This document shows, piece by piece, positions 46,720 to 51,086 of a stretch of 64,000 nucleotides of DNA (position 1 is its first letter; every line of letters begins with the position of its first letter). A program made the position numbers and the translations under genes. The notes under the pieces are model-generated. The model was not told the DNA's origin. It made no database searches and worked only from the letters and a program-made list of their open reading frames with translations. The DNA is from Escherichia phage vB_VIPECOOM03, in the sequence record OQ721911; one strand, written 5' to 3'.

Positions 46720-47579
46720 TTACACCGCCATTTTTCCTTTCAAGACACCATGGGACTGATAATCTTTGAGAACGAAATCTCGCGCTGTCATATATTCAGT
46801 TAACCAATACATTTGAGTTTCAGTATCGCATTGACTGAATCCATTAGGCCAATTAATACTGAGTTTGCACAGGTCCATAGGGGTTCTATTTAATATCTCT
46901 TTGCATTGCTCAATATGGTTAGAATAAATGTGTGTATTGCCGCCCGAGAATATCAAATCGCCCGGAACTAGTTCACACATGTCAGCAACAATATGTAAGA
47001 GAGCAGCATAGCTCGCGATGTTAAATGGAAGACCGAGGAAAACATCTACCGAGCGTTGATACCATTGGAGGTCAAGGTATCCGTTACGAACATTAAACTG
47101 ATAGAACATGTGACAAGGTGGTAATGCCATTTGCTTAAGTTCAGCTGGATTCCACGCTGACACAATTTGACGCCTATCGTTTGGAAATGTTTTAATACGA
47201 TTAACAACTTCTACAATTTGGTCTACACCGCCAAAATCACGCCATTGTTTTCCGTAAATTGGACCAAGTTCACCACTATGATATCCTAAATCTTTTGCTT
47301 GATTTTCGTAATTTTCATCCCAAATCGTTTTTCCAGCAATTAAAGATCCATGAGTACGTTTACGTAGATCATTTACGTTAGTACTTCCTGACAGAAACCA
47401 TAGTAACTCAGAAATACATGCATTCCAAGCGAGCTTCTTAGTCGTTACTGCAGGAAAACCTTTAGTTAAATCCCAGCGTAATTTAGTACCGAACAAAGCA
47501 ATTGTTCCTGTGCCTGTTCGGTCATCGGTTTCGTAGCCATTTTCTAGAATATCTTTAATTAAAAATTGGTATTGTTGCA

Positions 47580-47580
<1 letters not shown>
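46720..47580 (-). CDS. td: Thymidylate synthase (uninterrupted, no intron)
   Basis: ORF-track start at 47592 is a TTG; ATG at 47580 gives 286 aa (T4 TS length) with active-site PCH and conserved DLGP.YG.QWR; continuous, unlike intron-containing T4 td. Confidence 0.93.
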
Positions 47581-48605
<1,025 letters not shown>

Positions 48606-48621
<16 letters not shown>

Positions 48622-48965
48622 TGAAAAGGGCCAGGAACATATCCGCTAGAGTTAACCATTTTAACTAAAGTTGCCATTCCTCTATTAACTGCTTGTGCGA
48701 TTTCATCAAAAATTTTGTCACTACCACCGTAAAAGTCATTAAAAAATTCTAACGCGTTCTCCCGAACTTTTAATTTACGGCCGACAATTTCGCCTACAGT
48801 AAATTCTCTTCCGCAAAATCCAGTGTAAATTGTAATTACACCCGTTAACTGACTTTCACGGGAATTTATGTCGTGTGATAAATTAATAAAAGCCGTCCCA
48901 CGCGCGGTTTTAAGTTGGCAACGAATTTTTACTTGAGTAATTCCAGTTACATGAATGTCAGACAT
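48606..48965 (-). CDS. Hypothetical protein (frd.2 position)
   Basis: 119-aa ORF. Confidence 0.55.
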
Positions 48966-48975
48966 AATATTTTCC

Positions 48976-49218
48976 TCAAACAGACTTTTTCACAATTTTC
49001 CAATCAGCTTTAAACTGATCAACGTCAGAATAGTAAATCCAGAATCCTGCGCTTTCTCCATCCTCATAAAGAGGGCATCCATCGCATTCATCTTCCCATC
49101 CCATATCACGTAAAAGATGTTCAGCTTTTTCAACAAGTTCAGAATCTTTACCAATGATATTAAAATACCATTTACCTCTAACTTCTGAATCTTTAATGCT
49201 CTGGCGTTGTAATCTCAT
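48976..49218 (-). CDS. Hypothetical protein (frd.3 position)
   Basis: 80-aa ORF preceded by promoter-like element and RBS AAGGAGAA. Confidence 0.6.
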   Translation of the reverse strand: MRLQRQSIKDSEVRGKWYFNIIGKDSELVEKAEHLLRDMGWEDECDGCPLYEDGESAGFWIYYSDVDQFKADWKIVKKSV

Positions 49219-49243: not shown

Positions 49244-49273
49244 ATAGTATCACACTACTACCCTGTTGTAAAC
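49244..49273 (-). promoter_or_regulatory. Early-type promoter-like element (GTTTAC -35, 18-bp spacer, TACTAT -10) overlapping an inverted repeat
   Basis: Minus-strand GTTTACAACAGGGTAGTAGTGTGATACTAT; inverted repeat AGGGTA/TACCCT brackets the -10. Confidence 0.45.
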
Positions 49274-49674
49274 TACTTTTTGAAAGTTTTTCGCAAAAGT
49301 TCAATGATTTCATCTACATTGTTTTCGTCTACAATGCAGTGAATTTTTGTTACGCCAGAAATCTTGTCTTCGACTTCATCTTCTTCAGAAGTCGGTTCTT
49401 TATACTCGCGGAAACAATAAAACTCTTCTTCACTAAGTTCAAAATAATCATCACCCATACCATCATCATTATAGATTTCGCCATTAGCACAAATGATTTC
49501 AGTTACATAATCAAATCCATCTAAACTTGATATTGATTTAACTTCAAACCAACCACCATTTTCTTGAATGATGCCGACCATATTAGCATTTGATGAACTA
49601 ATATCAATGAAAGATTTAATACGATGTGGATTTAACTCATATTTTTTGCCAATTTCCATTTTGATTTTCCTCAT
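49273..49674 (-). CDS. Acidic hypothetical protein
   Basis: 133-aa ORF, Asp/Glu-rich. Confidence 0.55.
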   Translation of the reverse strand: MRKIKMEIGKKYELNPHRIKSFIDISSSNANMVGIIQENGGWFEVKSISSLDGFDYVTEIICANGEIYNDDGMGDDYFELSEEEFYCFREYKEPTSEEDEVEDKISGVTKIHCIVDENNVDEIIELLRKTFKK

Positions 49675-49704
49675 TTTGATAGGGGCTTGACAGCCCCTTG
49701 ATAA

Positions 49705-49932
49705 TTATTGTTCGATCAGTCCCATGTAAAATTCTGCGTCTTCAGCATCCATACCATCGCAATATTCATTAGCCATAAAGCGGGTGAGGTCTTCAAGAGG
49801 ACCTTCAATAACAATTTGAATGCTCCAAAACTTAGAATCTTGCACACTTGTGATACTAAGTTCAGGATAACGATTACGAATAATTTCTTCAATATATTCA
49901 AAATCAACGATGTCAATATCAACTTTAGCCAT
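49705..49932 (-). CDS. Acidic hypothetical protein
   Basis: ATG at 49932 with strong RBS (AAAGAGGAAA) gives 75 aa; the longer ORF-track version (117 aa) lacks an RBS. Confidence 0.55.
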
Positions 49933-50037
49933 ATTGTTTTCCTCTTTAATCGTCAGCAGTATTGCCGATAGTTGTATAGTACCATAGAAGAACAGGGATG
50001 TAAACCGTTTTGTGAAAAAAATTTTTGAAATAAAAAA

Positions 50038-50056
50038 GGGGACCTCTAGGGTCCCC
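50038..50056 (-). terminator. Rho-independent terminator downstream of gene 32
   Basis: GGGGACC/GGTCCCC stem; on the minus strand it is followed by a long T-run. Confidence 0.8.
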
Positions 50057-50078: not shown

Positions 50079-50987
50079 TTAAAGGTCATTCAAAAGGTCA
50101 TCCAGGTCCGTGTCATCAGCACTAGATGAACTGCCAGAGCTTGAGCTCATAAAATCATCTTCAGTTTTTGTTTTGAAGTCATCAACATTAAATGCATCCA
50201 AATCATCAGCAACTTTATCAGCTTTCTTAGCGGCAGTCGCTGCGGCACCACCCATAGCAGCAGTTCCCATAACTTGACTGAACTTAGTGCTCAATTCTTC
50301 AAACGATTTGAATTTATCTTTAGAAGTCATTTCAGAAAGGTCAACCATTTGTTCGAACAGTTCTTTCTGGAAAGATTCATCATCGATGTTTGGAATCGCA
50401 GATTGATTCAGGAATTTAGATTCGTCGTAGTTACTAAAACCAGAAACTTGTTTAACTTTCAGTACAAAGTTAGCACCTTCCCACGGACAAGTTACATCAA
50501 CCGGAGTTTCACCCATTTCAACATCAACTGCAATCATTGCATTGATTTTATCCCAGATTTTCTTACCGAAACGGTATTTAAATACTTTACCTTCATTTTC
50601 TGGAGCAGCTGGGTCTTTTACTACAAGAATGTTAGCCCAGTAAGAAGTTTTACGTTTAACAAGACCATACTCTTTATTGTCAGTGTTATACAAATCATTT
50701 TTACTGATGTACTGACATACTGGACAAGAATCGTAATCACCGTGGGTAGATGAACAGTTTTCAATATACCATTTACCATTTTTCTTGAAACCGTGATTTA
50801 CAAGAATTGCAAATGGTGCTTGTTCATCATTTTTAGACGGAAGAAAACGAATTACTGCTTGACCGTTACCCGCATTATCGAGTTTCAGTTTCCACTCGCC
50901 TTTATCTTCAGAAGAAAAACCACCTTTATTTCCAGCCAGTTTAGCCATTTGTGCAGCGAGTTCAGCAGTAGATTTACGTTTAAACAT
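50079..50987 (-). CDS. 32: Single-stranded DNA-binding protein gp32
   Basis: 302-aa ORF; [17 protein letters not shown]... and acidic Ser/Asp-rich C-terminus match remembered T4 gp32. Confidence 0.95.
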
Positions 50988-51070
50988 TTTTATTTCCTTT
51001 TTAATTTAATTAACAGTTGGTGCTATGACGATGTATGACCTCATAGCTGGTCAGTGAGATAATTATAATC
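50988..51070 (-). promoter_or_regulatory. Gene 32 5' leader / translational autoregulatory operator region
   Basis: Leader ends ...UUAAAUUAAAAAGGAAAUAAA before the AUG, an A/U-rich unstructured tract preceded by GC-containing segments able to fold, as described for T4 gene 32 mRNA. Confidence 0.55.
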
Positions 51071-51078
51071 TATTTATA
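51071..51078 (-). promoter_or_regulatory. T4-type late promoter (TATAAATA on minus strand) for gene 32
   Basis: Plus-strand TATTTATA about 85 nt upstream of gene 32 ATG. Confidence 0.5.
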
Positions 51079-51086
51079 ATAAGCAA

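Follow-up and report, generated by a model that had tools for sequence, protein, structure and literature searches.

The frd.2 and frd.3 genes beside gene 32

The sequence analyzed here, referred to as the window, is a 64,000-nucleotide (nt) segment of a Tequatrovirus genome from Escherichia phage vB_VIPECOOM03 (record OQ721911). We investigated two small open reading frames (ORFs) of 75 and 133 amino acids (aa) on its minus strand. Read along that strand, gene 32 is followed by the 75-aa ORF, the 133-aa ORF (49273..49674), an 80-aa ORF, two further ORFs and then frd (coordinates in Table 1). It is essentially certain that the two ORFs are the T4 early genes frd.3 and frd.2, which are already catalogued and hence hold no novelty as genes. 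Their products agree with those of T4 at 74 of 75 positions (Frd.3) and 125 of 128 positions (Frd.2). Frd.3 shares its location with T4 NP_049853, described as an [quoted passage not shown], and carries one substitution, A63 here versus S63 in T4. Similarly, Frd.2 is 98% identical to NP_049852, differing by three substitutions and sharing its position, start codon and promoter context. The T4 genome (NC_000866) has the identical order beside gene 32, with frd.3 at 146575-146802, frd.2 at 146143-146529 and frd.1 next; the 80-aa ORF of the window is frd.1 (DUF5417). The 1.8 kb around both ORFs match Escherichia phage vB_VIPECOOM01 letter for letter (100% identity), and HY01 and T6 at about 95%. 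Profile searches agreed: Frd.3 scored 135.8 bits with Pfam Phage_FRD3 (PF05798; cutoff 28.1, E 7e-40), aligning to positions 1-75 of 75, and Frd.2 scored 132.5 bits with FRD2 (PF03197; cutoff 29, E 9e-39), aligning to positions 1-96 of 96, and matched phrog_622 at 3e-46.

An earlier note, made from this sequence alone, held that T4 has no counterpart of these ORFs, which is not the case. Its placement of them between the frd.x genes and the gene 32 terminator was right about the terminator, but the ORFs are frd.x genes themselves. Both ORFs are present, and the shorter is 75 aa long as described; the length of 133 aa, however, is an over-call. The T4 annotation and all orthologues begin at the second ATG (49659), which gives 128 aa and has a GAGG 9 nt before it that overlaps the first ATG. 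The strong ribosome binding site reported for the 75-aa ORF was recovered as AAAGAGGAAA. Neither gene is new: each has its own Pfam family, and frd.2 was treated in a 2025 paper. The suggestion that the two products are anti-defence proteins or DNA mimics was in part built on the mistaken view that T4 lacks these genes.

The expression signals are those of early genes. Upstream of frd.3, the promoter elements GTTTACA and TGGTACTAT were invariant in nine Tequatrovirus loci while the spacer sequence varied freely, the signature of a working promoter. A near-identical promoter core precedes frd.1. Since this second promoter lies after the frd.2 stop and serves frd.1, frd.3 and frd.2 constitute a two-gene early unit. 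In a preprint (bioRxiv 10.1101/2024.04.04.588121), frd.3 RNA figures among the NAD-capped T4 transcripts of highest abundance. Between the two genes lies a stem-loop of -14.5 kcal/mol (z -1.5, not significant alone), with a conserved stem, longer by one G:C pair in KRT47, and a variable loop. We rejected it as a terminator, given that it has no U tract and a folding z of only -1.5; it may be an RNA-stability or processing element.

Conservation and selection

An 87-aa antisense ORF (49708..49971, plus strand) overlaps frd.3, and ORF length therefore proves little. We compared the two genes with their orthologues by the Nei-Gojobori method and obtained ratios of nonsynonymous to synonymous substitution rates (dN/dS) of 0.03-0.47 for Frd.3 and 0.03-0.38 for the Frd.2 N-terminal domain, showing that both genes are under purifying selection. 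By tblastn, 733 phage records contain Frd.3 and 887 contain Frd.2, in each case only among enterobacterial Tevenvirinae (T4-like phages); for gp32 the count was 2461, with 1196 at no less than 60% identity. Frd.3 orthologues at 23-28% identity, from Winklervirus, Jiaodavirus and Erwinia phage Cronus, keep the predicted fold (template modelling (TM) score 0.85-0.90).

The Frd.3 family is narrow, as an exhaustive HMMER profile search with the Frd.3 alignment against 1.8 billion representative proteins returned seven matches only. These were short Frd.3-like proteins or fragments, save for a 2044-aa Cys-rich repeat protein (P0071) with 11 weak stretches, which we judged to be a repeat-inflated chance match. 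Frd.3 aligns to positions 317-391 of the 391 positions of phrog_1764, whose length gave rise to the idea of fusion proteins; none was present in 36 clusters or 733 phage records, where Frd.3 measures 72-99 aa, apart from one 50-aa fragment.

Published work shows that T4 can do without either gene in laboratory E. coli. The plating efficiency of a frd.2 amber mutant is about 1 (PMC12152347). In a genome-wide CRISPRi-ART knock-down, frd.2 was the sole T4 gene of unknown function called "Fit"; its entry in the supplementary table is marginal (score 0.83, p 0.027, compared with 3.29 for gene 32), the six frd.2 guides shown in the supplement are each "Not fit", and the entry for frd.3 is -0.49, "Not fit" (PMC11879866). 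Our literature search found nothing on Frd.3 function. Dispensability of this kind, together with the gain and loss of ORFs between phages in the gene 32-frd region, could be read to mean that frd.2 and frd.3 merely fill a plastic region and have no function, or that no protein is made from them. That explanation is effectively refuted by conservation: the dN/dS values are 0.03-0.47, the promoter and Shine-Dalgarno sequence are conserved, orthologues at 25-40% identity retain the predicted fold (TM 0.85-0.9), and the AlphaFold2 models of both proteins are confident.

Allele classes of the Frd.2 front half

We compared the Frd.2 alleles of 21 loci. Among phages whose gp32 is 97-100% identical to that of the window, the identity of the Frd.2 N-terminal domain ranged from 32 to 99%, and that of the last 27 residues from 96 to 100%. 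In KRT47, REP1 and a metagenomic Tequatrovirus, DNA identity to the window is above 95% across most of gene 32 and into the beginning of frd.3, falls to 40-55% at about 49630-49400 and is back to 95% by about 49320. Correspondingly, the synonymous rate (dS) was 0.9-2.0, that is, saturated, in the N-terminal domain, versus 0.06-0.11 in gene 32 and 0.06-0.34 in the C-terminal module, where the nonsynonymous rate (dN) was 0 in most pairs and 0.04 in loci L010 and L014. Saturated dS with a dN/dS of about 0.3 shows that the allele classes are old and were carried over by recombination that breaks in the linker, and did not arise by fast evolution in place. The new point of this analysis is that closely related phages exchange the front half of Frd.2 among very old allele classes.

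Three classes were distinguished: A, MEIGKKYELNPHRIK, found in T4 and the window; B, MYTGRKYELVPRLID; and C, MKIGKTYIINP. The T4-type allele is nearer to Mosigvirus-like versions (62-68% identity, at a gp32 identity of 64%) than to the other alleles of its own genus. Using tblastn, an identity of 90% or more was reached by the last 40 aa, comprising linker and C-terminal module, in 481 phage records out of 727, and by the whole of Frd.2 in 126 of 887. Positive selection on the N-terminal domain was rejected, as dN/dS was 0.04-0.38 and never exceeded 1. We likewise discarded a coupling between the Frd.2 allele and the type of the variable Frd.3 hairpin (lower-case letters), since the two assort independently (a-A, a-B, b-B, b-C and c-C). 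Fusion of the C-terminal module to other domains was also rejected: the last 40 aa gave one site per record in the 727 records, and all 30 matches listed lay in Frd.2-type small ORFs or in unannotated DNA.

Some phages carry two Frd.2-family members at the locus, and their order relative to frd.3 varies. A second paralogue, beginning METGKFYVLDPAAKKQF, occurs in Mosigvirus-like phages on either side of frd.3 (L012 3953-4366; L016 2626-2997; L018 3674-4081; L019 2631-2996; L022 641-1027 and 1089-1451), and one metagenomic contig holds two tandem copies of a Frd.2-family paralogue. Copy number and gene order of the family are thus variable.

Frd.2 and the GoF family

The AlphaFold2 model of Frd.2 has an overall predicted local distance difference test (pLDDT) score of 86.9. 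It predicts strands at residues 6-9, 37-46, 49-57, 62-64 and 83-85 and a C-terminal helix at 115-126; residues 92-99 have a pLDDT below 50 and are disordered. The predicted architecture fits a layout of a bent five-stranded antiparallel sheet, a flexible linker and a C-terminal domain, which is that of a described family: according to Kim et al. (2025; PMC12152347), Frd.2, GoF and MotB.1 belong together in a Tevenvirinae family whose N-terminal part is predicted to be an LSm-like/SH3-like barrel.

Our profile searches independently reproduced this published link and, at the level of sequence, confirm Frd.2 as a full-length paralogue of GoF. T4 GoF matches phrog_622, the PHROG of Frd.2, over its full length (4.6e-38, residues 3-141), MotB.1 matches it at 1.3e-3, and Frd.2 matches the goF-annotated phrog_8944 at 2.4e-4; direct hhalign comparisons of Frd.2 with GoF and MotB.1 were weak (E 0.07 and 0.012). 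In a full-length alignment, GoF and Frd.2 share the barrel, the acidic linker and a C-terminal strand-ENN-helix module (KIHCIVDENNVDEIIELLRKTFKK in Frd.2), whose motif is recognizable in Winklervirus, Jiaodavirus and T4 GoF. All three proteins are early and non-essential and are predicted to have the small N-terminal beta-barrel, but MotB.1 has a different C-terminus. Mutants of goF, also known as comC-alpha, suppress rho-dependent restriction, whereas no phenotype is known for Frd.2. A label of "putative PinA peptidase inhibitor", given to Frd.2 in phage vB_EcoM_Nami (MZ502380; L026 1266-1652), was not reproduced: Frd.2 and PinA aligned at an hhalign E of 0.048 with a probability of 1%, and Inhibitor_I24 (PF10465), which T4 PinA matches at 7e-48, gave no Frd.2 match at E up to 1.

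Foldseek returned no significant PDB match for the Frd.2 model, none reaching E <=1e-3. The weak neighbours were protein- or RNA-interaction barrels of the Tudor, SH3 and LSm types, the LSm domain of Edc3 among them. The PDB sequence search was empty, and PADLOC and NCBIfam yielded no match.

The family link raises the possibility that Frd.2 works as an RNA chaperone of the LSm type, or as a factor in mRNA stability, by binding specific T4 or host transcripts and altering their decay or translation. Besides the membership itself and the Edc3 neighbour, this explanation draws on the gain-of-function mutant GoF(D25Y), which stabilizes mRNA carrying the gene 41 leader (PMC12152347), and on the marginal fitness signal of frd.2 in CRISPRi-ART. 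Wild-type GoF and MotB.1, however, do not stabilize that mRNA, the active form being a mutant that removes a charge, and AlphaFold3 gave no confident dimer or hexamer ring for either protein (PMC12152347). The Frd.2 N-terminal domain of the window carries a net charge of -12, the LSm-type structural matches have E >1, no LSm motifs were seen, and neither LSM nor Hfq families were among the Pfam matches at E up to 1. We regard this explanation as unlikely.

Frd.3, a compact acidic protein

The AlphaFold2 model of Frd.3 (pLDDT 94.5) is a compact beta-alpha-beta-beta-alpha-alpha arrangement, with predicted elements b1 2-8, a1 11-21, b2 26-32, b3 38-44, a2 46-57 and a3 63-70. The b2-b3 hairpin is variable and occurs in at least three types in the protein alignment. 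Foldseek against the PDB found no match at E <=1e-3; the best folds, BMC-H shell proteins and an ACT domain (E 0.04-0.15, TM about 0.5), amount to a generic resemblance among split beta-alpha-beta sandwiches. We rejected a BMC-H shell protein of the PduA/CcmK type, as the match stood at E 0.04 and TM about 0.5 with 2-10% identity and Pfam gave no BMC family. Against BFVD, only uncharacterized proteins of T4-like phages matched. The PDB sequence search yielded chance matches only (E 0.34-1.2), PADLOC none, and NCBIfam two, both at E>0.1.

A positional 80-aa protein in L020 and L021 (42 aligned columns, E 0.006) is probably a divergent Frd.3, judging from its sequence. The acidic 85-aa ORF nearby and an 85-aa protein of Jiaodavirus showed only short motif matches to Frd.3, and homology to either was rejected. 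Further small proteins lie between gene 32 and frd.3 in L009 (1975-2232), L015 (1954-2208 and 2420-2692) and L008 (1684-1896), loci from Jiaodavirus, a Salmonella phage and Winklervirus; they have Frd.3-like N-termini (M.KLNIDIVAE...) or Frd.3-like predicted folds. The gene 32-frd.3 interval appears to collect small Frd.3-type proteins, mostly acidic.

The shape of Frd.3 also invites the idea of a complex, in which the C-terminal strand and helix of Frd.2 would complete the three-stranded Frd.3 sheet, leaving Frd.3 as constant core and the barrel as variable head. The predicted Frd.3 topology does lack the fourth strand of its ferredoxin/ACT-type matches, the Frd.2 module stays constant under any N-terminal allele, and in Tequatrovirus and Jiaodavirus the two genes are neighbours transcribed together, with a gap of 3 nt in the latter. 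Such a complex is pure inference, however. In Mosigvirus-like and Winklervirus loci the order of the genes is reversed or broken up, and GoF has the same C-terminal module with no adjacent Frd.3. We consider it improbable.

Acidity and DNA mimicry

Both products are rich in Asp and Glu, as the earlier note observed. These residues make up 24% of Frd.3 (net charge -13, isoelectric point (pI) 4.05) and 23% of Frd.2 (net -17, pI 4.3). Among the 44 non-overlapping small ORFs of the window, Frd.3 ties for most acidic and Frd.2 falls in about the top 14%; roughly one third of the 44 have a pI <5, so acidity is common in this genome and hardly discriminates. Acidity is nevertheless a lasting property of Frd.3: Frd.3-like proteins were always acidic (net -6 to -16), down to 25-28% identity in distant genera, and D7, D10, E12, E16, E56, E64 and D65 are invariant. 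The B-class alleles of Frd.2, in contrast, are near neutral (net -3 or -4, pI 5.6-5.8), and acidity is thus not a conserved property of that protein.

Ocr, Arn, ArdA and Ugi are, like Frd.2 and Frd.3, small early proteins of strong acidity that can be dispensed with in permissive hosts. By analogy, Frd.3, and perhaps Frd.2, might present phosphate-like carboxylates and block a restriction enzyme or another DNA-binding defence enzyme. The charge density of Frd.3, -0.17 per residue, does lie between those of T4 Arn (-0.10) and T7 Ocr (-0.24), with Frd.2 at -0.13, and the retained acidity, the invariant acidic residues, the early signals of frd.3 and its dispensability in laboratory hosts point the same way. 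However, the homology and structure comparisons found no sequence or fold similarity to these mimics: neither the PDB sequence searches nor the listed Foldseek PDB matches of the two models included Ocr, ArdA, Arn or Ugi, and the best Frd.3 folds were the generic alpha/beta sandwiches described above. This argument from fold is weak, since known mimics have no common fold. Also counting against mimicry are the near-neutral B-class alleles, the abundance of acidic small ORFs, and the protection that glucosyl-hydroxymethylcytosine and Arn already give to T4 DNA. Given its allele-dependent acidity, mimicry by Frd.2 is unlikely, and we hold nucleic-acid mimicry as a whole to be quite unlikely.

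Apart from the mistaken premise on T4, the computable evidence neither supports nor refutes the anti-defence and DNA-mimic suggestion. The circumstantial points in its favour are the early signals, the laboratory dispensability, the charge density and kept acidity of Frd.3, and an N-terminal polymorphism in Frd.2 of a kind frequent in arms-race genes. GoF, the sole functionally studied relative of Frd.2, is linked to mRNA stability and not to restriction, and frd is absent from the main text of EVADES, a compendium of anti-defence proteins.

Proposed role of Frd.2 and Frd.3

Pfam, PADLOC and NCBIfam yielded only two families of unknown function. These results, the net charges of -13 and -17 and the interaction-barrel neighbours of Frd.2 leave no catalytic or nucleic-acid-binding signature in either protein. 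We tentatively favour, at somewhat less than even confidence, a reading in which Frd.2 and Frd.3 would be neither enzymes nor nucleic-acid binders but would bind proteins early in infection, as non-essential modulators of host takeover or counter-defence. The polymorphic Frd.2 barrel would be a target-recognition module, exchanged between phages as old allele classes, and the constant C-terminal module a common anchoring or effector element. Frd.3 would act as an acidic ligand occupying a basic surface of its partner, probably a nucleic-acid-binding protein.

The T4 internal proteins Ip1, Ip2 and Ip3, which face GmrSD (PMC12373910), offer an arms-race precedent, being polymorphic, non-essential and swapped as variants between close relatives. 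They differ in being packaged and injected, in having proven targets and in being unrelated in sequence, and the analogy to Frd.2 concerns the pattern of variation alone.

Several points weigh against protein-binding modulators. The dN/dS of the Frd.2 N-terminal domain is about 0.3 and not above 1; the shuffling of old alleles agrees with balancing selection, but neutral mosaicism in a region known to be plastic would account for it too. The action of a GoF point mutant on mRNA stability means that the family could work on RNA (PMC12152347). The independent assortment of frd.2 and frd.3 and the variation of their order between genera imply that the two proteins need not work together. Finally, with no significant PDB fold match by Foldseek, structure provides no functional analogy.

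A bolder version extends to the whole GoF/Frd.2 family, which might be a modular and polymorphic counter-defence or host-targeting system of T-even phages. Interchangeable barrel heads would sit on a constant module that perhaps docks on a nucleic-acid-mimicking Frd.3 core, and the heads, ancient and shuffled, would each match a variant host immune or RNA-metabolism protein. This is speculative, and we think it rather unlikely.

Features of the locus and neighbouring genes

Two ORFs of the frd-gene 32 interval have no T4 counterpart. They lie between frd and frd.1 (phrog_3183 and DUF7247 in Table 1) and are also present in KRT47 and several other Tequatrovirus loci. The thymidylate synthase gene td is uninterrupted, whereas T4 td has the I-TevI intron, and no segG homing-endonuclease gene lies between gene 32 and gene 59 (50988..51086), where T4 has one; the phage is thus without two T4 mobile elements in this neighbourhood. 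A strongly basic ORF separates td from frd, which abut in T4; in other loci the ORF at this place is a different one, of 115 aa. Directly after frd.2, four loci carry a basic ORF of 86-100 aa beginning MTKDDFLDAVEKASEKFEVMGVRVHKDRNYGLD (L010 3347-3649, L012 3383-3643, L014 3341-3643 and L016 3386-3646), which overlaps the 3' end of frd.2 in two phages and is found in neither the window nor T4.

Table 1. Features around frd.2 and frd.3 in the window, in descending order of position for the main features, followed by neighbouring genes.
Feature	Coordinates	Strand	Remarks
Gene 32 intrinsic terminator	50056..50038	-	GGGGACCCTAGAGGTCCCC then T run; upstream boundary of the frd.3-frd.2 unit
T4-type early (sigma-70) promoter of frd.3-frd.2	50004..49976	-	Consensus scan: (G)TTTACA, 17 nt, TACTAT, upstream TG
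frd.3 Shine-Dalgarno AAAGAGGAAA	49947..49938	-	Read from sequence; GAGG 8 nt before ATG; kept in 9 Tequatrovirus loci
frd.3 coding sequence	49705..49932	-	75 aa, pI 4.05; 74/75 identical to T4 Frd.3
Frd.3 variable b2-b3 hairpin, aa 26-41	49810..49857	-	DNA identity 56-78% in REP1 and VATA22, flanks >90%
Intercistronic stem-loop GGGGCU-GUCA-AGCCCC	49682..49697	-	8 nt past frd.3 stop, just before frd.2 Shine-Dalgarno
frd.2 coding sequence	49273..49659	-	128 aa plus stop; 125/128 identical to T4 Frd.2
Frd.2 N-terminal domain, aa 1-88	49396..49659	-	Predicted small beta-barrel and two helices; block-mean pLDDT 88-97
Frd.2 acidic linker, aa 89-101, net -5	49357..49395	-	Disordered core; length and sequence vary in alignment
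Frd.2 constant C-terminal strand-plus-helix module, aa 102-128, GVTKIHCIVDENNVDEIIELLRKTFKK	49276..49356	-	96-100% identical in Tequatrovirus
Second early promoter	49272..49244	-	After frd.2 stop, serves frd.1; TTTACA, 17 nt, TACTAT, TG-extended
Gene 32	50079..50987	-	
frd.1	48976..49218	-	80 aa, DUF5417
DUF7247 ORF	48606..48965	-	119 aa, phrog_3566; no T4 counterpart
phrog_3183 ORF	48364..48621	-	85 aa, very acidic, pI 4.05; no T4 counterpart
frd	47783..48364	-	
Basic ORF between td and frd	47580..47786	-	68 aa, pI 10.3
Thymidylate synthase gene td	46720..47592	-	Uninterrupted

Significance

The analysis provides three experimental handles. The first is the set of deeply diverged, recombining Frd.2 barrel alleles on a constant C-terminal module. 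The second is the presence of this module in GoF as well. The third is Frd.3, which is confidently folded, has no significant match to a solved structure by Foldseek and is acidic across its orthologues. About a third of T4 genes are uncharacterized early genes of this kind. The interest that remains in frd.2 and frd.3 lies in their function and in the pattern of allele swapping, which is directly testable.

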